A DNA stretch of 64,000 nt. Source: Escherichia phage vB_Eco_OMNI12. Shown piece by piece: positions 221 to 45,540 of the stretch. The notes under the pieces are model-generated. The model saw nothing but the letters and a program-made list of their open reading frames with translations. It was not told the origin of the DNA and did no database searches. Within the stretch, counting starts at the first letter, position 1. Every line of letters starts with the position of its first letter. The stretch is from sequence record OL362041.1. One strand, given 5' to 3'. The translations under genes and the position numbers were made by a program.

Positions 221-1903
221 TTAAACCATTACAGTAAACCGACCAACTTTCTTCATTTGAAGATGCTGACCATATGCTTGTGGGTCATGGTCTCTATGCG
301 AAATAACAAAAACGTTAGTATTTTTTAAACTATCTAAAATAGTTGAAATAGCTTTTACACCTTCAACATCAGTTGCTGAATCAAAAACTTCATCAAGAAT
401 TAGTGTGTTTATTTTAACACCTGAAACTTTTTCAGCAATATCACGCCAAGTAAATAAAAGCGCAATATCAATTCGTGCTTTTTCACCTTGACTAAATGAA
501 GCATAACTAAAATCTTCACGACCACGGGATTTAATTGTCTCATTAAATTCTTCATCTAATGTAAACACATAATCCGCTTCCATTATTTTAAGATAATGGT
601 TAATCTGCTTATTAAATAATGGAATGTACTTTTTAATAATAGCACCTTTAATACCAGAATCTTTGAGCATGTCAGTCAAAATTCCTCTGTGGTATTTTTC
701 CATTACTAAATTAGTTTTTGTCTTAACAATTTTATCAAGTTCTTCTTGAAGCAGTGCTATTTCATCAGCATGGTCAATAAACTCAGATGATGCTTTTTCT
801 ATAGCCGCTTTAACTTTTTTAGCTTTATCTACCGTCGTGATTAAGGATTGCTTTTTATTGCGAATATCATTCGCCAACGTCTGCTGGGTTTTAATATTAT
901 CTCGGTATTCATCAACAAGAACTTTTAAATTATCACGATGTGTTGAAAGCTGTTCAAACGAATGCGTGCATTCAGAAACTTTATCTTTAATTTTAGAAAC
1001 AACTTTATCACCGGAACTTAATTGTGACAAACAGGTTGGACATAATCCACCTTCGTGATACATATTAATGACTTTATTATACGAGTCAATTTTTGATTTA
1101 ATTAAAAATGCTTCTTGACCGATTTTATTAAATGCATCAGTTGGGTCTTCATCCAAAACAATATTAACTAATCTTTCGTTAGCTTCTTCTATTTCCGATT
1201 TTAGCGTTCTAGCTTCTTTTGCCAAATCATCATACATATTTTGTAGACGAGTAAGGTTGTCACCCGTTAATTTTTTCTGGCGTTCAACGTTATCATTATA
1301 TATTTTAATTTGTTGGATAATACTATCTTTTTTAACATCAAGCACTTGGTTTTGTGAATTTAATTCACGTATTAGTGCTTTATTAAGCTTATCCATTTCA
1401 GCTAATGTTCCTACCTCAAGCAGGTCTTCCACAAGCTTTCTTCGCGCCGGGGTCGACAAACCCATGAAAGGGGTATACCCTGCTGTACCAAGGACAACAA
1501 TCTGCTTGAAACTGGCATATGACATTCCGATAAGCTGTTCAAATTCTGCTTGGAAATCTTTACTGCTGGCAGATTCATTAAGACGTGTACCGTTAACGGT
1601 GATTTCGAAAACGTTTGGTTTTTGTCCTCTTTTGATATAGTACTTTTTCTCATCATATTCCATCCACAGTTCAACTAAAAGTTCTTTCTTATTTGTGCTG
1701 TTTATTAATTGACCTTTCTTTACATCACGAAATGGCTTGCCAAAAAGCCCAAATGTGATGGCTTCTAACATAGTAGACTTACCACCGCCATTTCGTCCAG
1801 TAATAAGAGTTTTTTGAACCTTATCTAATTGAATGTCAACTCCATTTTGACCAACTGACATTATATTTTTATATTTTACTCTATTAAGTTTAAATGATTT
1901 CAT
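221..1903 (-). CDS. 46: recombination endonuclease subunit gp46 (Rad50/SbcC-like ATPase)
   Basis: 560 aa ORF; Walker A GRNGGGKST; long central coiled coil; length equals T4 gp46. Confidence 0.9.
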   Translation of the reverse strand: MKSFKLNRVKYKNIMSVGQNGVDIQLDKVQKTLITGRNGGGKSTMLEAITFGLFGKPFRDVKKGQLINSTNKKELLVELWMEYDEKKYYIKRGQKPNVFEITVNGTRLNESASSKDFQAEFEQLIGMSYASFKQIVVLGTAGYTPFMGLSTPARRKLVEDLLEVGTLAEMDKLNKALIRELNSQNQVLDVKKDSIIQQIKIYNDNVERQKKLTGDNLTRLQNMYDDLAKEARTLKSEIEEANERLVNIVLDEDPTDAFNKIGQEAFLIKSKIDSYNKVINMYHEGGLCPTCLSQLSSGDKVVSKIKDKVSECTHSFEQLSTHRDNLKVLVDEYRDNIKTQQTLANDIRNKKQSLITTVDKAKKVKAAIEKASSEFIDHADEIALLQEELDKIVKTKTNLVMEKYHRGILTDMLKDSGIKGAIIKKYIPLFNKQINHYLKIMEADYVFTLDEEFNETIKSRGREDFSYASFSQGEKARIDIALLFTWRDIAEKVSGVKINTLILDEVFDSATDVEGVKAISTILDSLKNTNVFVISHRDHDPQAYGQHLQMKKVGRFTVMV

Positions 1904-1918
1904 TTTGTATCCAATTGT

Positions 1919-2773
1919 TCACAATGAAGAAAATTCTTTAACTAAAGCCTGTAATGAAGCCTCTATTGGATATCCATTCTTAACTAACATTTTCCTAAAC
2001 ATTACATGTTTAGGACGATTATATGATATCCACAATTCATACAATTTATCTTTATTATCCCAATGATAGCCTTTTCGTCGAGATGCTATATGAGCTTTTC
2101 TAATCTCCGGATTTTTCCAACTAGCAGCTACTGAATTTGATATAGCTATTTTATATTCAGGTTTTGATAAAGCAGCACGAACAGCCTTTTGGTGTTTAAT
2201 TTTATTTTCTTCGTTATTAAACCATTCCCTTGAAGCCATTGAAATTTTTTGTTTTGTTTTAAAATTATTTAATCTTTCTTTATTATCTTTCCTATTTTTT
2301 GCTACTGAAAAATATTTTAATGCCCTTTCTCTAGCAGCATTTCTATTTTGCGGATTTGAATAATACTGTTGAAGCCTTTTTGATATTGTGTCACTTACAT
2401 CTTGTTTTATAAAACTATATTCAGCAGCTATTAAATCAACTTCGGCTAAAGATAAATTTTTATATGTTTTTCCTGACATCATTCTGTTTAAAGCATTTAA
2501 CATTTTTCCATTTTTACCTTTTGCTAATAAGAAGTGTGCTTTAAAATGATTAAAATGACTTAAATTAACTAAATTCCATGTAGATTTTAAATATTCAGGA
2601 AATATTGATTTAGGAAGCACGTGGTGTGCTTCCGTTTTACCTGGAGTTTTAACAGTTGAATTCACAGAAATAAAATTAATGTAAGACTTGGCGTCTTCTT
2701 CACTCAACGCTAATTTTTCAACTAATTCCTTTATTAAAAATTCATCATTAATGTCAAGTTTAAAATTCTTCAC
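1919..2773 (-). CDS. freestanding HNH homing endonuclease (mob-like)
   Basis: 284 aa; motif KTEAHHVLPKSIFPEY...NLVNLSHFNH; repeated basic C-terminal modules; paralog of ORF 10417-11256. Confidence 0.7.
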   Translation of the reverse strand: MKNFKLDINDEFLIKELVEKLALSEEDAKSYINFISVNSTVKTPGKTEAHHVLPKSIFPEYLKSTWNLVNLSHFNHFKAHFLLAKGKNGKMLNALNRMMSGKTYKNLSLAEVDLIAAEYSFIKQDVSDTISKRLQQYYSNPQNRNAARERALKYFSVAKNRKDNKERLNNFKTKQKISMASREWFNNEENKIKHQKAVRAALSKPEYKIAISNSVAASWKNPEIRKAHIASRRKGYHWDNKDKLYELWISYNRPKHVMFRKMLVKNGYPIEASLQALVKEFSSL

Positions 2774-3033
2774 AAAAGATTCCTTTTAATGTATCTTTTA
2801 GACCATTCTATCATATCATCATAATCTAAAAAGTATTCATCAAATTCAGCCATGCAAACAACACCTTGTGCTGCTTTTGATGTGATATAAATTATTCCAA
2901 CATATCTAGAATCTTCTTCGGTGTATTCAATATTTGCTATGAATTCATCGTTAATGTCAAATGTCGAAAACTTCACAGTATGCATCCTTAATACAAGATA
3001 CGGCCATATCTCGCAATGATTTAGGTGTGTCAT
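2770..3033 (-). CDS. hypothetical protein
   Basis: ORF track 87 aa; start uncertain (overlaps next ORF). Confidence 0.35.
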   Translation of the reverse strand: MTHLNHCEIWPYLVLRMHTVKFSTFDINDEFIANIEYTEEDSRYVGIIYITSKAAQGVVCMAEFDEYFLDYDDMIEWSKRYIKRNLL

Positions 3034-3220: not shown

Positions 3221-4236
3221 TGTGTTGCCTCTACATATAACTGATTTGCATATTGAATAAGTGCTTCACGGTCAGAATCAGTGATGTCTGGAATTGCATT
3301 AATGTATTCTTCCATCAACGTCTGAAGAGATTGAACTTCAACTTCTTCACTGTCATCTGACTCGACAGAGTTATCAATCTTTGACACAACTCGTAATGAA
3401 TGCACAACTTTTTCTAGTTCAGATTCGAACTTCGTTAGATTTTTGTCTACTTCAGTTACTATAACACGTACTGATAGATTTGTAAAATCTTTATAGTCAA
3501 TTTTTCCTTTAAATGGATAATGAATTCTACGATGCCAGGTAGTGTTGTTTGGAATAAATTCCATTCGTTCTGTTTCTGTATCAAACATCCAGAACCCACG
3601 AGGGTCATTCTCGTCACCTGCAGTTAGTGTCCATGGTGTCCCAATATATCTGACGTTAGCAGCCTCAGAGATAGTATGGAAGTGACCAGACCACACCTCT
3701 TTATAAGTCTTAAGGAAATCAGGTTCAAGACCGTGAGATTTCATTCCTTTATAAAAATAAAATCCATTCAGTTCCCAGTGACCGACGCAAAAAGAAGCAG
3801 ATGAAGTTTTGATGTGCTCAAGAATTTCACCAGTATTTTCTTCACACATCCAAGGAATTAAATCAATTAAACATCCGTCAAAATCTACTGTAGTAGGCTT
3901 ATCATATACTTTAACATTAGGATATTTAGCCAAAAGCTCAGTAGAGGCATTTGGAGTTAAAGTATTTTTAAAGTGCATATCATGGTTTCCTACAACAGTA
4001 TGTAGGGTAATACCATCATCATCAAGCATTTGAACTATTTCACGAGCGAACTCCATAGTTTTATGCGTGATTGCTTTTCGCACATCAAAAATATCGCCGT
4101 ATTGAATCCATGTAGTAATTCCATTTTTCTTAGAATATTCTATTGCTTGTTTAATTCCATCCAACTGAATGGATTGAACCCACTCATCATCGGCTTTAAC
4201 GCCTAAATGCCAATCACCTAAATTTAAAATTTTCAT
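3217..4236 (-). CDS. 47: recombination endonuclease subunit gp47 (Mre11/SbcD-like nuclease)
   Basis: 339 aa; metallophosphatase motifs GDWHLG, GDIFD, GNHD; length equals T4 gp47. Confidence 0.9.
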   Translation of the reverse strand: MKILNLGDWHLGVKADDEWVQSIQLDGIKQAIEYSKKNGITTWIQYGDIFDVRKAITHKTMEFAREIVQMLDDDGITLHTVVGNHDMHFKNTLTPNASTELLAKYPNVKVYDKPTTVDFDGCLIDLIPWMCEENTGEILEHIKTSSASFCVGHWELNGFYFYKGMKSHGLEPDFLKTYKEVWSGHFHTISEAANVRYIGTPWTLTAGDENDPRGFWMFDTETERMEFIPNNTTWHRRIHYPFKGKIDYKDFTNLSVRVIVTEVDKNLTKFESELEKVVHSLRVVSKIDNSVESDDSEEVEVQSLQTLMEEYINAIPDITDSDREALIQYANQLYVEATQ

Positions 4237-8858: not shown

Positions 8859-8882
8859 ATCAATTCCTCAAAGGCAATTCAT

Positions 8883-8917
8883 ATGTTAATAATACCACAG
8901 TTTGAGCTCGTTGTAAA
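8883..8917 (-). promoter_or_regulatory. T4-type early promoter
   Basis: Minus strand -35 TTTACA (8912-8917), 17-nt spacer, -10 TATTAT (8889-8894); upstream element TTTCACAAAGTTG. Confidence 0.6.
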
Positions 8918-8992
8918 CAACTTTGTGAAAAATATTTTAGGGAATGATAAGAAAGGAACGATAACTTAGAATGGTAATATACAGAATGTGAG

Positions 8993-20117: not shown

Positions 20118-20645
20118 TTATGCGAGTACCGTCTTTAACCGTTCTTCAAACTTCCGAAGAGTATTCTGGCGTTCAGCTCTTTGCTTTTTGTAAGTTTCAA
20201 TACGCTCTGAAATGAGAGTGTATCGTTCATTTACTGATTCTTTCATAAAATCAGGAATTTCACGAGAAGCTTTAATCTCGTCAAATTTATCAATAACAGC
20301 TTGCTCTTCAGCAATTAAGTTATCATACATCAAAATATCTTTCTTGATGAACTCAATATCTTCTTGAGTTACACGAGATAATTTAGATGCTTTATCCTTT
20401 TTGTACTGTTCGTTAGTATCACGAGACCAGTGTAATGTACGATTTTTATTCGTATTCTTATAAATTTCTACAATACCAATCTCATCAATAATAACGATCC
20501 AATTCCAACGGGATTTGTAAATTTGTCCTCCATCAACCGTGATTTCACCTCCGATTGAGATGTCATTAAAGAACTTGCTTTGTGCTTCAGATTTAAATTT
20601 ACCATCGTTGTAATTTACCAGGTTGAAAATATCTTTAGCGTTCAT
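20118..20645 (-). CDS. hypothetical protein
   Basis: Start moved to Met 21 (ATG 20645-20643, GGAGG upstream); 175 aa. Confidence 0.5.
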   Translation of the reverse strand: MNAKDIFNLVNYNDGKFKSEAQSKFFNDISIGGEITVDGGQIYKSRWNWIVIIDEIGIVEIYKNTNKNRTLHWSRDTNEQYKKDKASKLSRVTQEDIEFIKKDILMYDNLIAEEQAVIDKFDEIKASREIPDFMKESVNERYTLISERIETYKKQRAERQNTLRKFEERLKTVLA

Positions 20646-20667
20646 TTTGTGTTCCTCCGTAGTTGAT

Positions 20668-20702
20668 AGTTGTATAGTACCACAGAGGAACGGTCTTGTA
20701 AA
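20668..20702 (-). promoter_or_regulatory. T4-type early promoter
   Basis: -35 TTTACA (20697-20702), 17-nt spacer, -10 TACTAT (20674-20679). Confidence 0.6.
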
Positions 20703-20705
20703 CAA

Positions 20706-22079: not shown

Positions 22080-22109
22080 TTTATTCTCCAATCTCACATT
22101 TGTTTTGAT

Positions 22110-22144
22110 AGGGTAATAGTATCACACTACTACCCTTCTGTAAA
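22110..22144 (-). promoter_or_regulatory. T4-type early promoter with embedded palindrome
   Basis: -35 TTTACA (22139-22144), 17-nt spacer, -10 TACTAT (22116-22121); palindrome agggta...taccct. Confidence 0.6.
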
Positions 22145-22148
22145 CAAT

Positions 22149-22412
22149 TTATTTTAACGTTCGCCAAATTTTTACTGCTTCACGGCGAGATACTTCTACA
22201 GCTCCAAGTTCTACAGCTTTTTGGCGTCGGCGAGCGTGTAAGTCATAATGTTTAATGCGTTTATCTTGAAACCAAGAACGTTTCATTCCTATTGCTTCTG
22301 CCATTTCATGAAGCTCTTCAATATCTCCATCAGTGAACATATGACAATTTTTAGTTGGATGACCGCGAAGTTTCCATCCATGATTCATTAAAACATCTAC
22401 GTAAACTGTCAT
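22149..22412 (-). CDS. conserved hypothetical protein (possibly DUF4031-like)
   Basis: 87 aa; MTVYVDV...CHMFTD...KRSWFQ...HYDL pattern; family assignment from memory, low certainty. Confidence 0.45.
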   Translation of the reverse strand: MTVYVDVLMNHGWKLRGHPTKNCHMFTDGDIEELHEMAEAIGMKRSWFQDKRIKHYDLHARRRQKAVELGAVEVSRREAVKIWRTLK

Positions 22413-22624: not shown

Positions 22625-22648
22625 CAATTTTGTGAAAAATTTTTGAAA

Positions 22649-22674: not shown

Positions 22675-22676
22675 TA

Positions 22677-25236: not shown

Positions 25237-25365
25237 AATTACATACTCCTTTGAATAATATCAATAATGTTGTTCACCAGATTATAAGTAAACATTGGAT
25301 AATTATATTGAATCATCACATACACAACAAACAAAACTTTCATTCTCTTCTCCTTGGCAGTTGAC

Positions 25366-25400
25366 AAGATTACTATACCATAACCTTGCCAACTTGTAAA
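25366..25400 (-). promoter_or_regulatory. T4-type early promoter
   Basis: -35 TTTACA (25395-25400), 17-nt spacer, -10 TATAGT (25372-25377). Confidence 0.55.
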
Positions 25401-25404
25401 CCGT

Positions 25405-30349: not shown

Positions 30350-30370
30350 GTTGTTCTCCTCTTAACTGAT

Positions 30371-30405
30371 AGAAAAATTATACCACAGTCAAGAGGAAAA
30401 GTAAA
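30371..30405 (-). promoter_or_regulatory. T4-type early promoter
   Basis: -35 TTTACT (30400-30405), 17-nt spacer, -10 TATAAT (30377-30382). Confidence 0.6.
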
Positions 30406-30408
30406 CAG

Positions 30409-32546: not shown

Positions 32547-32963
32547 TTAAATGTAAATATTTTTGCCGTAATACTTATACCAGTGTGGCTTCATTAAAAT
32601 TTTTTCATCGAGTCGTTGTTGACTCAACTTAATAGCTGATTTGCATGGATTATAATCATTTTTTCATTCTACTGGAATATCGCTGATGTCAGGAACTTCA
32701 GTATCTTTTATACTGAACCCGCGTTTTAAGCATTCCGTTATAATGTCCGATTGACGCTTTCGCAAAAATTCTAACTTATCGTAAAAGAAAGTAACATGAC
32801 CAGAACCTAAAATAAATTTAGAAGATATTTTAAAATCTTTAACGCGCTTACCGTTTGCCACATGCTTACGAACTATACCAAAAACACGCGGCAATTCACG
32901 GTATTCTGCGATTAAATGTTGATCAGCAAGTTCAGATACTAAAGTCAAATTAATACGAGTCAT
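32547..32963 (-). pseudogene. denV: denV (pyrimidine-dimer glycosylase, endonuclease V) interrupted by in-frame TGA
   Basis: 99-codon ORF ends at TGA (32666-32664); same frame continues 38 codons ending WYKYYGKNIYI, collinear with remembered T4 endo V (138 aa). Confidence 0.7.
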
Positions 32964-32982
32964 TTTATCCCTCCAAGTAACT

Positions 32983-33017
32983 GTGAATATACTATCACAA
33001 TTCTAGGAGAAAGTAAA
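32983..33017 (-). promoter_or_regulatory. T4-type early promoter upstream of denV
   Basis: -35 TTTACT (33012-33017), 17-nt spacer, -10 TAGTAT (32989-32994). Confidence 0.5.
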
Positions 33018-33022
33018 CAACT

Positions 33023-33553
<531 letters not shown>

Positions 33554-36429: not shown

Positions 36430-36530
36430 AGTATTTCCTTAGGTTAATTGAGATTTAAAATCCGTAGGAGTATAATACTCTATCGTCAAATTATAGGCTC
36501 ATAATATCTCAATCATGAGCCTGCGTAAAC

Positions 36531-37676: not shown

Positions 37677-37705
37677 TAAAAAGCCCCAACCTTTCGGTCG
37701 GGGCT
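37677..37705 (-). terminator. rho-independent terminator (GNRA loop)
   Basis: AGCCCCGACC-GAAA-GGUUGGGGCU followed by UUUUU. Confidence 0.75.
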
Positions 37706-38234: not shown

Positions 38235-38262
38235 AAAAAGCCCCAACCTTTCGGTCGGGGCT
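38235..38262 (-). terminator. rho-independent terminator ending tRNA/stable-RNA transcription unit
   Basis: Same hairpin as 37677-37705 followed by UUUUU. Confidence 0.75.
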
Positions 38263-38581: not shown

Positions 38582-38655
<74 letters not shown>

Positions 38656-38658
38656 TAA

Positions 38659-39324
38659 TTAAAATTTCATTTTTCGACCTTTAAACCATCCTTCTGGAAT
38701 TGGGTCAGTTTTCTTAATACGTTTAGAAACTTTTTCATCTAATGAATGAATCCACATCATACCAAATTGGGAATTCTTTTCACCTTGTTGGTGTTTATTT
38801 TTGGCGTGAGATTCTTTCATTTTATTAATAGTTTCAAGAGTATGGGTCTTACCCAAGAAAGATTTAATATTTAAAAATTTCTCTCTATACTTAGGATTAT
38901 CCCAAAGCTGTTTAAACCTTTCTGAACCCATTTTACGATATTTTTCTTTAAGGTCTGGGTCGTTCTCAAATCTGGTTTTAAAAGCAGCAGCCCCTTTTAA
39001 GGAAGCTTCTTTCTTTTTATCCAAATATTCTTTAGTGTTTAAATGGTCCCAACCACCTTCACCACCTAATTTCAAATTATAAACATCAGGGCGCTTTAAA
39101 AACTCTTCAGTCACAATATTCTTTTCTGACTCAAACATAGAGGTTTTATCGTCAAAGAACTCTAATATTTCTTTAGAGAAATTTTCTATACCATACTTGT
39201 CTTGGGCTCTTTTTAATAATTTACCAGAACCCATATATCCATCATCTAAATTTTCGGTAGAATGAGCGCCTATATAGATTTTATTATTAATTTTATTTGT
39301 TATTTTATAAGTGTAATGGAACAT
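38659..39324 (-). CDS. segB: GIY-YIG homing endonuclease SegB
   Basis: 221 aa; GIY-YIG motif YKITNKINNKIYIGAHS; sits inside tRNA cluster as in T4. Confidence 0.8.
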   Translation of the reverse strand: MFHYTYKITNKINNKIYIGAHSTENLDDGYMGSGKLLKRAQDKYGIENFSKEILEFFDDKTSMFESEKNIVTEEFLKRPDVYNLKLGGEGGWDHLNTKEYLDKKKEASLKGAAAFKTRFENDPDLKEKYRKMGSERFKQLWDNPKYREKFLNIKSFLGKTHTLETINKMKESHAKNKHQQGEKNSQFGMMWIHSLDEKVSKRIKKTDPIPEGWFKGRKMKF

Positions 39325-39365
39325 AAATATCTCCTATTTCTAAGAGTATTTATGTTCCCAAAATA

Positions 39366-39437
39366 TGGCCCTGGGTGGAATTGAACCACCATCTGGCGAT
39401 TATGAGTCGCTTGCTTGAACCTTCCAGCTACAGGGCC
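39366..39437 (-). tRNA. tRNA-Ile (anticodon CAU, lysidine-type)
   Basis: 72 nt; anticodon loop CU-CAU-AA; T-arm GGUGGUUCAAUUCCACC. Confidence 0.8.
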
Positions 39438-39443
39438 TTGATA

Positions 39444-39516
39444 TGCTGATTGACGGAATCGAACCGCCGACATCCTCATTACAAGTGAGGTGCTCTACCT
39501 ACTGAGCTAAATCAGC
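39444..39516 (-). tRNA. tRNA-Thr (anticodon UGU)
   Basis: 73 nt; D-arm GCUCAGUAGGUAGAGC; anticodon loop CU-UGU-AA. Confidence 0.85.
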
Positions 39517-39523
39517 GAAATTA

Positions 39524-39610
39524 CGGAGGCGATAGGATTTGAACCTATGAGTCACCGGAGCGACTGCCGGTTTTCAAGACCGGTGCATTAAACCACTCTG
39601 CCACGCCTCC
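39524..39610 (-). tRNA. tRNA-Ser (anticodon UGA)
   Basis: 87 nt with long variable arm; anticodon loop CU-UGA-AA. Confidence 0.85.
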
Positions 39611-39612
39611 AG

Positions 39613-39686
39613 TCTCCGCGGCAGGATTTGAACCTGCGACATTCTGCTCCCAAAGCAGACGCTCTACCAAACTGAGCTACACGGAG
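39613..39686 (-). tRNA. tRNA-Pro (anticodon UGG)
   Basis: 74 nt; anticodon stem UCUGC/GCAGA, loop UU-UGG-GA. Confidence 0.85.
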
Positions 39687-39698
39687 TAAATTAAATTT

Positions 39699-39770
<72 letters not shown>

Positions 39771-39776
39771 AAACTT

Positions 39777-39863
39777 TGGTACGAGAAGTGGGACTCGAAC
39801 CCACAAGGAAATCATTCCGCAGCATTTTAAGTGCTGTGCCTTTACCAATTTGACCATTCTCGC
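39777..39863 (-). tRNA. tRNA-Leu (anticodon UAA)
   Basis: 87 nt with long variable arm; anticodon loop CU-UAA-AA; CCA encoded. Confidence 0.85.
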
Positions 39864-39864
39864 G

Positions 39865-39937
39865 CTGGGAATAAAGGACTCGAACCTTTGCATCTAGCAG
39901 TCAAAGTGCTATGCCTTACCAACTTGGCTAATTCCCA
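39865..39937 (-). tRNA. tRNA-Gln (anticodon UUG)
   Basis: 73 nt; anticodon loop CU-UUG-AC; 1-nt spacer to tRNA-Leu. Confidence 0.85.
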
Positions 39938-41420: not shown

Positions 41421-41442
41421 TTTATTCTCCTCAGTAGTAGAT

Positions 41443-41477
41443 AGGGTAATAGTATCACTACCCTATCTAAAAGTAAA
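41443..41477 (-). promoter_or_regulatory. T4-type early promoter with 11-bp-arm palindrome
   Basis: -35 TTTACT (41472-41477), 17-nt spacer, -10 TACTAT (41449-41454); palindrome tagatagggta/taccctatcta around -10. Confidence 0.6.
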
Positions 41478-41478
41478 C

Positions 41479-41712
41479 TTATTTTTTACGAAAAATTGAT
41501 TTATTTTCTGCTGCCCATTTTTCAATAACTGCAGCAGGACCAGTAACAACAATTTTATCACCGTAATCTTCTGCGGCGAGTTGACCGAAATTATCTAATG
41601 CATCACGAAGAACTCCATGAGGCATTTCACCCATTTTATCTTTCTTGCCAGTGTAAATAAACTCAACTTTTACATCAGCAGTTTCAGCAATAAATTCTTG
41701 GTAAGTTTTCAT
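41479..41712 (-). CDS. ipI: internal protein I-like (capsid-targeted, putative anti-restriction)
   Basis: Start at Met 5 of ORF track; N-terminus MKTYQEFIAE is the T4 internal-protein capsid-targeting sequence; adjacent to 57B as ipI in T4. Confidence 0.6.
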   Translation of the reverse strand: MKTYQEFIAETADVKVEFIYTGKKDKMGEMPHGVLRDALDNFGQLAAEDYGDKIVVTGPAAVIEKWAAENKSIFRKK

Positions 41713-41740
41713 TTTGATTTCCATTTGGTTTTGTTTTGAT

Positions 41741-41775
41741 AGGGTAATAGTATCACAACTAAAACCCTATGTAAA
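41741..41775 (-). promoter_or_regulatory. T4-type early promoter with palindrome
   Basis: -35 TTTACA (41770-41775), 17-nt spacer, -10 TACTAT (41747-41752). Confidence 0.6.
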
Positions 41776-41788
41776 CAACTTTGTGAAA

Positions 41789-42046
41789 TTATTTTAAATC
41801 TTCTAATCGTTTCTTCATCTTAGAACCATTTTTAGCAATTTCTCCTGCATCGGAGCATAATGCTAAAAGTGCTTTAACTTTAGTTTGGTCTCCTTTAAAA
41901 GATGAAGGATCGACCGCAGCAGCAAGTTCTTTAATACGAGAGAAAAGACGCTCAGCTTCAGCTAAAGCCATTCCAAGCTTTACTTCCATACCGTGGGAAG
42001 ATTCAGTGATAGTAGTTTTTGTAGCAAACTCTTTGAAAGTTTTCAT
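41789..42046 (-). CDS. internal-protein-like small protein
   Basis: 85 aa; N-terminus MKTFKEFATK resembles capsid-targeting sequence; AGGAAAA SD. Confidence 0.5.
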   Translation of the reverse strand: MKTFKEFATKTTITESSHGMEVKLGMALAEAERLFSRIKELAAAVDPSSFKGDQTKVKALLALCSDAGEIAKNGSKMKKRLEDLK

Positions 42047-42071
42047 TTTTATTTTCCTAATTAATTTTGAT

Positions 42072-42106
42072 GAGGTAATAGTATCACTACCTCATCAGTA
42101 TGTAAA
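42072..42106 (-). promoter_or_regulatory. T4-type early promoter with 9-bp-arm palindrome
   Basis: -35 TTTACA (42101-42106), 17-nt spacer, -10 TACTAT (42078-42083); palindrome gatgaggta/tacctcatc. Confidence 0.6.
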
Positions 42107-42119
42107 CAACTTTGTGAAA

Positions 42120-45493: not shown

Positions 45494-45504
45494 TGGATTC
45501 TCCT

Positions 45505-45512
45505 TATAAATA
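45505..45512 (+). promoter_or_regulatory. late promoter (TATAAATA) for gene 53
   Basis: Plus-strand TATAAATA 29 nt upstream of ATG 45541. Confidence 0.6.
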
Positions 45513-45519
45513 GATAATA

Positions 45520-45527
45520 TATTTATA
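45520..45527 (-). promoter_or_regulatory. late promoter (TATAAATA) for gene 4
   Basis: Minus-strand TATAAATA 27 nt upstream of ATG 45493. Confidence 0.6.
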
Positions 45528-45540
45528 AACAGGAGGGCCC

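Follow-up and report, generated by a model that had tools for sequence, protein, structure and literature searches.

The internal-protein loci of T4-type phages encode injected anti-defence proteins, IPI* acting against GmrSD and IPIII against an unknown system. The T-even internal-protein (IP) genes are reportedly flanked by elements that combine an early promoter with an inverted repeat, which Repoila, Tetart, Bouet and Krisch are said to have described in EMBO J in 1994 together with a proposal of recombinational shuffling. As reported, the elements lie at the same loci (ipI, and ipII/ipIII in T4), consist of the same T4 early promoter with an overlapping inverted repeat, and are repeated up- and downstream of IP open reading frames that share an 11-residue leader.

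The later-named ‘PeSL’ cassettes are made up of an AT-rich tract, −35 and −10 elements, a stem-loop and a Shine–Dalgarno (SD)–ATG, and occupy intergenic positions in hyperplastic regions, with stems commonly placed between −35 and −10 or overlapping −10 (Arbiol et al. 2010; Comeau et al. 2014). They are tied to indels and replacements, and those of the T4/PST pair were catalogued with the consensus TTTACW-N17-TAYWAT (Comeau et al. 2014). The authors describing T-even and PeSL elements proposed roles both as terminator or attenuator and in shuffling by recombination. The T-even IP elements are regarded as analogues, not homologues, of the PeSL of RB49 and phi1 (Arbiol et al. 2010); the RB49/phi1 stems are G/C-rich (GGGG...CCCC), one of them blocking downstream expression, whereas the T-even IP stems are weaker and AT-rich.

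Two further arrangements are comparable. In the T4 hairpins that sequester ribosome-binding sites (e, soc, I-TevI/II/III, segB, 49 and others), a promoter lies inside the hairpin, so that both arms are present only in read-through RNA; this internal promoter is late (or middle) and serves late genes. In bacterial promoter-coupled terminators (Fletcher et al., bioRxiv 2026), the stem-loop of the upstream unit and the downstream promoter share DNA, with the stem coinciding with the −35, a T-tract in the spacer and termination approximately 10 bp upstream of the start site.

Early-promoter cassettes of the ipI locus

The window, a stretch of 64,000 nucleotides from Escherichia phage vB_Eco_OMNI12, is part of a T4-type (Tequatrovirus) genome, with 98–100% identity to Tequatrovirus genomes. 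Its variable ipI internal-protein locus (41439–42106) is transcribed from the minus strand, downstream of genes 1/57A/57B. It contains a gene for an 85-residue internal head protein (41789–42046, minus strand; phrog_3499, E 1e-49), whose N terminus, MKTFKEF..., is the conserved capsid-targeting leader, and a gene for a 77-residue internal virion protein (41479–41712, minus strand; phrog_8111, E 1e-52) beginning MKTYQEFIAE.... At the same place T4 has one IP gene, different from those of the window. The window is devoid of ipII/ipIII, and its e–denV junction holds a single promoter. The gene content of internal-protein loci shifts fast among T4-type phages.

The preliminary description had proposed that three early promoters of this locus and one elsewhere share a core with a ‘(T)ACC’ extension. 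The core GGTAATAGTATCAC is exact in all four copies, occurring on the plus strand at 22112, 41445, 41743 and 42074 (0.49 matches expected by chance, even with two mismatches allowed); the extension is confined to copies 1 and 3. All four are read on the minus strand as GTTTAC-N18-TACTAT, the T4 early promoter, and more fully as GTTTAC-N14-GTGA-TACTAT, with an A/T tract upstream and an SD and ATG downstream. By this sequence architecture they are predicted T4-type early promoters (Pe). The loop of the inverted repeat holds the −10 hexamer, which is enclosed by arms of 11, 10, 7 and 6 bp in the four copies (RNA fold z −3.4 to −4.6). The SD lies outside the stem, with 17–26 nt between the end of the 3′ arm and the ATG.

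Copies 3, 2 and 1 flank the two IP genes in intergenic positions between 57B and a trna.4-like gene; the head protein gene lies between copies 3 and 2, and the virion protein gene between copies 2 and 1. Copy 3 (42068–42107, minus strand; −35 GTTTAC at 42107–42102, −10 TACTAT at 42083–42078), upstream of the head protein gene, has exactly the sequence of the promoter that precedes ipI in T4. Its arms TGATGAGGTA (42088–42097) and TACCTCATCA (42068–42077) pair at 10 of 10 positions around the 10-nt loop GTGATACTAT, with a predicted RNA fold of −20.5 kcal/mol (z −4.6). Copy 2 (41739–41776, minus strand; −35 at 41776–41771, −10 at 41752–41747), upstream of the virion protein gene, has a 7-bp stem, ATAGGGT (41764–41770) with ACCCTAT (41739–41745), and an 18-nt loop. 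In an outer helix its −35 region pairs with the downstream segment CAAAACAA (21-nt arms, 81%), and the RNA fold reaches −18.1 kcal/mol (z −3.7). Copy 1 (41438–41478, minus strand; −35 at 41478–41473, −10 at 41454–41449) precedes the trna.4-like gene for a 61-residue membrane protein; the arms TAGATAGGGTA (41459–41469) and TACCCTATCTA (41438–41448) are perfectly paired over 11 of 11 bp, with a loop of 10 (−19.7 kcal/mol, z −3.4).

Copy 4 (22110–22145, minus strand; −35 at 22145–22140, −10 at 22121–22116) is located upstream of a gene for a 322-residue protein of unknown function (phrog_1250). It can form a 6-bp stem, AGGGTA with TACCCT (22110–22115/22131–22136), or an alternative 11-bp stem with one G·U pair and a 5-nt loop (RNA fold −20.7 kcal/mol, z −4.3).

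Inspection of the sequence argued against a promoter reading in the other direction: the plus-strand loop has a TAGTAT hexamer, with no −35-like hexamer at the right distance. A search of the window with Rfam gathering thresholds returned only eight tRNAs, and no known RNA family at the cassettes. Neither promoters nor terminators are annotated at ipI in the curated T4 records NC_000866 and AF158101; the deposited annotation MZ726795 marks a T4 early promoter at the same site.

Other early promoters of the window carry stems with different arms. A GTTTAC-N18-TATTAT promoter (36495–36530, minus strand) has an unrelated 8-bp stem, AGGCTCAT with ATGAGCCT, whose 3′ arm overlaps the end of the −10 (RNA fold −19.6 kcal/mol, z −4.3). 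The same architecture recurs at 25360–25401 (minus strand), where GTTGGCAAGGTTA and TAATCTTGTCAAC enclose TATAGT; the two G·U pairs of this stem are on the sense strand, and it folds as single-stranded DNA (ssDNA) to −6.7 kcal/mol on the sense strand, compared with −3.6 kcal/mol on the antisense strand. In a variant termed class B, the spacer pairs with the SD region. At 30354–30406 (minus strand), the spacer segment TTTTCCTCTTGACTG pairs with CAGTTAAGAGGAGAA, which includes the SD of a downstream endoribonuclease (regB-like) gene (−21.5 kcal/mol); at 20651–20703 (minus strand), GTTCCTCTGTGGT pairs with ACTACGGAGGAAC, which covers the SD of a downstream 175-residue gene (−23.2 kcal/mol). A 3′ arm covering the SD is found at the window promoters at 30406, 20703 and 8918.

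Comparison with the described elements

The element is already known, both from the T-even IP loci (Repoila et al. 1994) and as the ‘PeSL’ cassettes (Arbiol 2010, Comeau 2014). As in those systems, a stem-loop overlaps an early promoter in intergenic positions on both sides of small, variable open reading frames. Set against the reported description of 1994, the window cassettes show no essential difference and are the same element. With the PeSL they share the composite make-up, the intergenic location and a stem that often overlaps −10. They differ from the RB49/phi1 type, defined by TTGACA/TATAAT and a polyG...polyC stem, in having GTTTAC/TACTAT and AT-rich, variable arms. According to a figure legend in Comeau et al. 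2014, the stems of PST lie just upstream of the promoter, whereas the window stems enclose the −10.

The class B promoters appear to work like the T4 hairpins that sequester ribosome-binding sites around an internal promoter, except that the window promoters are early. The four GGTAATAGTATCAC copies are unlike the e, soc and I-TevI type, as their 3′ arms do not cover the SD. They are also unlike the terminators of Fletcher et al., since their loop contains the −10, their −35 is found at the margin of the 5′ arm or beyond it, and a T-tract is lacking.

Recombination junctions are found within the cassettes. The T4 trna.4 promoter is a chimera, its 5′ part corresponding to window copy 2 and its 3′ part to copy 1, with the crossover in the shared core. 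L044 has two chimeric cassettes with mismatched arms, and chimeric copies are present both in T4 and in metagenomic contigs. At the sequence level, these chimeras fit a role of the cassettes in shuffling by recombination.

Complementarity and covariation of the arms

Across 14 early promoters of the window, the mean best stem spanning the −10 is 6.29 bp, a value reached in 0 of 2,000 spacer shuffles, which give 4.39 ± 0.25 bp; stems of at least 7 bp occur in 6 of the 14, with 0.5 expected. The whole window has 17 perfect inverted repeats whose arms reach 9 bp or more with loops of 3–20 (7.7 ± 2.8 in shuffles); the only two to surround the −10 of a promoter are those of copies 1 and 3. A wider set of 154 unique promoters of this type from other phages was compared with a control in which arms were paired across copies. 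Stems of at least 7, 8 and 10 bp were present in 30, 17.5 and 7.8% of the promoters, and in 3.9, 0.86 and 0.04% of the cross-paired control.

Covariation was assessed in an alignment of 75 promoters, unselected for pairing and placed in the register of the preliminary description. Both sides had changed in 121 cells, compared with 80.6 ± 8.7 expected, and none of 500 shuffles reached 121; the covariation score was 0.246 in this register and did not exceed 0.149 in any slid register. A hairpin overlapping the −10, as originally suggested, is backed by this covariation and by the excess of stems over shuffles, and the promoter-wide alignment places arm complementarity far above chance. Another register, in which the −10 pairs with the spacer around a GTGA tetraloop, was discarded because its score (0.148) did not stand out from those of slid controls (0.153 at +1).

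Within the window, the statement that the arms differ between copies but stay complementary applies only to the copy-1 and copy-3 types, which three Watson–Crick double changes separate (stem positions 5, 6 and 10); copies 2 and 4 carry the arm sequence of copy 1, differently spaced. Between families the arms are unrelated, as in GTGTAGGAGC/GCTCCTACAC and TGGTAGAAGAC/GTCTTCTACCA; T4 has ATTGTGA/TCACAAT at ipIII and the 14-bp TCCTAGAATTGTGA/TCACAATTCTAGGA at ipII. Arm position varies, as does loop length, from 4 to 18 nt or more. Of 36 stem families, 16 have the stem around the −10/start site and 16 over the SD. Since stems are missing from about two thirds of early promoters and chimeras with broken stems persist, the hairpin is dispensable.

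Level of action of the hairpin

Mismatches within the stems are asymmetric between strands. Counted on the sense strand with families collapsed, there are 16 G·U mismatches and one A·C (p = 9e-4, composition-matched control), and G·U accounts for 67% of stem mismatches, compared with 19% in the control; an enlarged set of stem families gives 18 G·U and 3 A·C. The cassettes fold as RNA to −18 to −23 kcal/mol (z −3.1 to −4.6) and as ssDNA to about −8 kcal/mol. Strand-biased C-to-T mutation could inflate a G·U excess.

Of the functions offered in the preliminary description (a DNA structure such as a cruciform, a protein-binding site or an RNA element in read-through transcripts), the last is favoured by the sense-strand G·U bias and the stable RNA folds. 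Taken with the missing U-tract described below, the excess of G·U relative to A·C makes an RNA hairpin that forms in read-through transcripts a better fit to the sequence than a canonical terminator, a cruciform or a site for protein binding.

A symmetric DNA cruciform is disfavoured because of the strand asymmetry of the mismatches: ratios of 16:1 and 18:3 mean that the complementary strand would often bear A·C mismatches, which a cruciform does not tolerate. Arms of 7–11 bp with loops of 10–18 nt are in any case poor cruciform formers, and stability as ssDNA is only about −8 kcal/mol. A DNA-level action, in which a cruciform or single-strand hairpin drives shuffling by attracting recombination or a nuclease such as endonuclease VII, the promoter being incidental, would accommodate the junctions inside the cassettes and the two perfect copies (1 and 3), whose ssDNA folds equally on either strand and so does not discriminate between strands. 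It would also accord with the mini-circle crossover mapped to a PeSL loop, for which a stem-binding recombination protein was speculated (Arbiol et al. 2010). Homology between the conserved promoter cores alone, however, accounts for the crossovers just as well, and a DNA-level action is quite unlikely. Control of early promoter activity by a dimeric regulatory protein bound to the palindrome is extremely improbable. The symmetry is centred on the −10 region and T4 early promoter shut-off is not fully explained, but a sequence-specific site is disfavoured because the arms are unrelated between copies, lacking the conservation among sites expected of a palindromic operator; arms that are unrelated yet self-complementary are the signature of a nucleic-acid structure, and their position and loop length vary. 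The compensatory changes might instead have arisen without function through quasi-palindrome templated repair, in which one arm is copied onto the other by intrastrand template switching, a process first shown in T4 rII. The perfect palindromes of copies 1 and 3 accord with such an origin, as does the dinucleotide swap at stem positions 5–6, mirrored on both arms as if by a single templated event, and so does the dispensability of hairpins, given the chimeras and the stemless majority of promoters. Templated repair yields Watson–Crick complements, however, and does not predict 16:1 G·U over A·C; it also leaves unexplained the enrichment over shuffled spacers and the positioning of stems at the −10/start site or SD (16 + 16 of 36 families), and this account is highly unlikely. 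The earlier statement that covariation implies selection holds as to the covariation itself; the step to selection is not fully secure, given the alternatives of templated mutation at quasi-palindromes and of strand bias in mutation, and the natural occurrence of broken-stem chimeras.

It is unlikely, too, that the stems are genuine transcription terminators forming a composite terminator–promoter, the designation used by the PeSL authors and by deposited annotations. An RB49 PeSL stem lowered the expression of a downstream lacZ about as far as a strong terminator does (Arbiol et al. 2010), overlapping promoter–terminator units are reported to be common in bacteria, and in MZ726795 WebGeSTer and TransTermHP label these exact hairpins, overlapping the T4 early promoter, as rho-independent terminators. 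Against this, in none of 36 families do the 8 nt following the stem hold a U-tract (5 or more T), and a consensus terminator scan of the locus gave no match at the hairpins, which makes efficient intrinsic termination at the cassette stems doubtful on sequence grounds. The G+C-rich stem, short loop and immediate U-tract of a canonical intrinsic (Rho-independent) terminator are not found here. Because the same genome uses canonical stem-plus-T-tract terminators just upstream of other early promoters (for example, at 22675–22656 and 26246–26229), the −10-spanning stems are a different kind of object; the geometry is unlike that of Fletcher et al., and the T-even stems were called weaker by Arbiol et al. 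themselves. The absence of a U-tract from every stem family calls into question the ‘terminator’ label used in papers and genome annotations. A test for mutual exclusion of −10-spanning stems and canonical upstream terminators gave 4/43 against 54/332 (OR 0.53, p = 0.37), a non-significant trend with the sign expected of an anticorrelation. No usable T4 transcript-end mapping at these sites was found in the searchable literature.

Proposed function and significance

The RNA-level reading is that the cassettes are probably composite early-promoter/stem-loop units, in which a hairpin in read-through RNA delimits the upstream cistron at its 3′ end and the core serves recombination. Each cassette occupies the gap from a small gene's stop codon to the following gene's ribosome-binding site. 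Its promoter is predicted to be strong (UP-like A/T tract, GTTTAC, TGn, TAnnnT), with the 5′ arm carried by the spacer and the 3′ arm by the start-site region. Transcription from the cassette's own promoter would begin approximately 7 nt after the −10, within the 3′ arm, so that the hairpin could form only in RNA reading through from upstream. There it may attenuate or pause transcription, or else shield the end of the upstream cistron from 3′ exonucleases, and would insulate adjacent gene cassettes from one another. Short homology for swapping, deleting and inserting internal-protein genes would come from the invariant promoter core, which lies in the loop.

A more tentative possibility, less probable than not to hold, is that the stems are not terminators but devices that tell transcripts apart by origin, as only RNA from upstream would fold. 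About half of the stem families would mask the SD of their own gene, including that of the regB-like endoribonuclease, and the other half would place a stable hairpin at the cistron boundary. If true, a sizeable fraction of T4-type early genes would be translated or stabilized mainly from transcripts of their own promoter, and early promoters would join the late and middle promoters of late genes for which this logic has so far been documented.

Nothing here is categorically new, since the element dates from a 1994 publication and received its name in 2010–2014. What is sharpened is the covariation of the arms, the sense-strand G·U bias that points to RNA over DNA or protein, and the lack of a U-tract in any stem family. 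For T4-type phages, the cassettes are the proposed joints of internal-protein gene shuffling, and would make each inserted gene transcriptionally self-sufficient.

Early promoters and stem-loops at the ipI locus

The 3-kb stretch around the internal-protein promoters shares 98-100% identity with many Tequatrovirus (T4-type) genomes from Escherichia, Shigella and Yersinia phages. All of its genes lie on the minus strand, in the order dNMP kinase (gene 1), 57A, 57B, two small internal-protein (IP) genes (41789-42046 and 41479-41712), each starting with an MKT(F/Y)(K/Q)EF capsid-targeting leader, and a trna.4-like 61-aa gene. Of the two hypervariable internal-protein loci that T-even phages carry, this one is ipI.

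The sequence GGTAATAGTATCAC occurs exactly four times in the window, on the plus strand at 22112, 41445, 41743 and 42074. Read on the minus strand, all four copies (copy 1, 41438-41478; copy 2, 41739-41776; copy 3, 42068-42107; copy 4, 22110-22145) give GTTTAC-N14-GTGA-TACTAT, by its sequence a T4 early promoter of textbook form. An A/T tract carrying the stop codon of the preceding gene comes before each copy and a Shine-Dalgarno (SD)-ATG after it, and each lies in an inverted repeat with the -10 hexamer in its loop. The arms are perfect over 11 bp in copy 1 (TAGATAGGGTA/TACCCTATCTA) and 10 bp in copy 3 (TGATGAGGTA/TACCTCATCA); the stem of copy 2 has 7 bp around an 18-nt loop, and that of copy 4 has 6 bp or, if a single G·U is counted, 11 bp. 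The stems end 17-26 nt before the ATG, leaving the SD of all four copies uncovered.

The preliminary description had proposed palindromes with compensatory arm changes around the -10 element, and these are real: between copies 1 and 3, stem positions 5, 6 and 10 show Watson-Crick double changes, all three compensatory. In copies 2 and 4 the copy-1 arm sequence recurs at a different spacing, so that the evidence for compensatory substitution within the window amounts to one pair of arm types. At 41731-41778 and 22095-22150 complementarity continues beyond the inner stem, between the -35 region (TTGTTTAC) and a CAAAACAA motif right after the start site, so that the promoter as a whole forms a near-palindrome some 48 nt long (arms of 21 nt, 81%); RNA folds there show an additional outer helix.

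Complementarity of promoter arms

Across the 14 early promoters of the window, the best contiguous stem between the spacer and the -10/+24 region averaged 6.29 bp, against 4.39 ± 0.25 bp for shuffled spacers, none of 2000 shuffles matching the observed mean; six of the 14 had stems of at least 7 bp (0.5 expected). Arms unrelated to those of the four copies occur at other promoters, such as the one at 36530 (AGGCTCAT/ATGAGCCT). An unbiased count of all perfect inverted repeats with arms of 9 bp or more and loops of 3-20 in the window gave 17, against 7.7 ± 2.8 in dinucleotide shuffles, and among these only copies 1 and 3 enclose a promoter -10. The longest perfect short-loop palindrome of the window, at 39318-39358 (12-bp arms GGAACATAAATA ... 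TATTTATGTTCC, 17-nt loop), adjoins the tRNA cluster (38582-39937, minus strand; eight genes, as in T4). Another palindrome, TTATAAATA-gataata-TATTTATAA at 45504-45528, puts the T4 late-promoter consensus TATAAATA back to back on both strands.

IMG/VR was scanned with GTTTAC-N14-GTGATACTAT, leaving both arms free. The 112 loci recovered contained 89 unique promoters with the exact core; a broader T4-type promoter pattern gave 154. Among the 154, stems of at least 7, 8 and 10 bp were present in 30, 17.5 and 7.8%, compared with 3.9, 0.86 and 0.04% when 5' halves were paired with 3' halves of unrelated promoters. Self-complementary arms around one common loop differ widely (GTGTAGGAGC/GCTCCTACAC, TGGTAGGAGC/GCTCCTACCA, TGGTAGAAGAC/GTCTTCTACCA, GTTGATAGGGT/ACCCTATCAAC, CCGGAAGT/ACTTCCGG; also GGTCTAT/ATAGACC versus AGGCTAT/ATAGCCT). 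In an ungapped alignment of 75 promoters, selected only by core and downstream SD-ATG, the register with the -10 in the loop had changes on both sides in 121 cells; shuffles, a control inflated by relatedness, gave 80.6 ± 8.7 (0 of 500 as high). Its covariation score was 0.246 (shuffled, 0.173 ± 0.014), and every slid register, a control free of that problem, scored 0.149 or less. The promoter alignment thus places arm complementarity above chance, and the earlier proposal of a hairpin is sound. An alternative register, containing a GTGA tetraloop, could not be told apart from its controls.

Nature of the paired structure

A protein binding site, a DNA cruciform and an RNA element had all been suggested. 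That the arms are free to vary while remaining complementary argues against a sequence-specific protein site. RNA and duplex DNA were compared by tallying single mismatches flanked by pairs within stems, with related copies collapsed to families: 16 were G·U on the sense strand and one was A·C, whereas in cross-paired halves of the same arm compositions G·U made up 55% of the two (p = 9e-4). G·U accounted for 67% of all mismatches, against 19% in the cross-paired control (p = 4e-7), and in the set enlarged by two more collection scans (381 promoters; 36 families with stems of 8 pairs or more) the counts were 18 versus 3. A cruciform requires pairing on both strands, so the asymmetry disfavours it and points to a structure of the sense strand, either RNA or, less likely, non-template single-stranded DNA. 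RNA folds of the elements reach -18 to -23 kcal/mol (z -3.1 to -4.6), with G·U pairs lengthening the stems into the 'loop'; folded as single-stranded DNA, the perfect copies yield no more than about -8 kcal/mol, the same on both strands. Part of the G·U excess could come from strand-biased C-to-T mutation.

One deposited genome, relying on prediction programs, labels the same hairpins 'rho-independent terminator' and has them overlap a T4 early promoter. The sequences do not support this label: no stem family of the 36 is followed by five or more T within 8 nt, and a scan for consensus terminators found no match at the locus. Canonical terminators exist in the same genome, several directly upstream of other early promoters, on the minus strand at 22675-22656, 26246-26229 and 10392-10367 before the promoters at 22625, 26213 and 10351. 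With a G+C stem, a tetraloop and a T-tract running into the promoter's upstream A/T element, these form a second, different promoter-terminator arrangement. Mutual exclusion of -10-spanning stems and canonical upstream terminators had the expected sign and was not significant. Two identical terminator-like hairpins (AGCCCCGACCGAAAGGTTGGGGCT then TTTT) lie 557 bp apart at 38239-38262 and 37682-37705 (minus strand), just 3' of the tRNA region.

Transcription from sigma-70 promoters normally starts about 7 nt after the -10. The cassette's own transcript would therefore begin within the 3' arm and lack the hairpin, and only read-through RNA would fold. The observations are best explained by a composite early-promoter/stem-loop cassette whose hairpin would act in read-through RNA at the cistron boundary, as an attenuator of transcription, a block to 3' exonucleases or something else, and whose conserved promoter core would serve as a recombination joint.

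This element is already published. Arbiol et al. 2010 defined promoter-early stem-loops (PeSLs) in RB49/phi1, with the stem mostly between -35 and -10 or overlapping -10, found that one PeSL stem lowered downstream reporter expression, and proposed modular shuffling via PeSLs. By their account, the elements of Repoila et al. 1994 are built on T4 early promoters, and their AT-rich stems are weaker and vary in size. A catalogue of such elements in T4/PST, with the consensus TTTACW-N17-TAYWAT, followed in Comeau, Arbiol and Krisch 2014. Promoter-terminator overlap is widespread in bacteria according to a 2026 preprint, but its geometry is unlike that of the window cassettes.

Recombination between cassettes

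In T4 this place is taken by only one IP gene, ipI, which differs from those of the window. The cassette upstream of ipI has the same sequence as copy 3, and the one downstream matches copy 2 up to TACCCTATC and copy 1 thereafter, which indicates a crossover inside the shared core. The metagenomic T4-like contig IMGVR_UViG_3300045988_118042 (L044) carries two chimeric cassettes (3490-3519 and 3823-3852), in which the 5' arm of one type is joined to the 3' arm of another (ttttaaatagggta...tacctcatc; atggggttttagtt...tacctcatcg). Their broken stems show that the hairpin is dispensable and that exchange took place within the conserved loop.

At the second IP locus of T4, between e and denV, ipIII and ipII each have their own hairpin-enclosed early promoter (ATTGTGA/TCACAAT for ipIII; a perfect 14-bp TCCTAGAATTGTGA/TCACAATTCTAGGA for ipII; compare 1840-3020 of comparison locus L309). 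Neither gene is present in the window phage, whose e-denV junction (about 32963-33040) has one promoter only (33018), with a 5' arm like that of the T4 ipII promoter; this arrangement fits a deletion through recombination between cassettes. The adjacent denV (endonuclease V) ORF (32664-32963, minus strand) has only 99 aa, matching positions 1-97 of the 139-position PHROG profile, and none of the listed ORFs evidently continues it in another frame; the gene may be truncated or a pseudogene.

Complementarity of spacers to the Shine-Dalgarno sequence

Half of the stem families have a 3' arm that covers the SD of the gene it precedes. The excess of such complementarity is significant: at least 7 bp between a spacer and its own SD were found in 15 of 261 promoters (1.25 ± 1.1 expected), and anti-SD tetramers occur in 16% of spacers versus 8%. 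Such class B promoters lie on the minus strand of the window at 30354-30406 (spacer/SD pair TTTTCCTCTTGACTG/CAGTTAAGAGGAGAA, before a regB-like endoribonuclease gene), 20651-20703 (before the gene at 20645) and 8860-8918, and at comparison loci L004, L016, L053/L054, L104 and L008. Because the spacer is complementary to the SD, only read-through transcripts would have a masked SD. Hairpins with a promoter inside, which fold only in read-through RNA, are a classic T4 device for late genes such as e, soc and I-TevI; those cases combine late promoters with late genes, whereas the promoters here are early. Class B seems to be the early-promoter counterpart of this known mechanism of late genes, and these promoters are the most interesting lead of the analysis.
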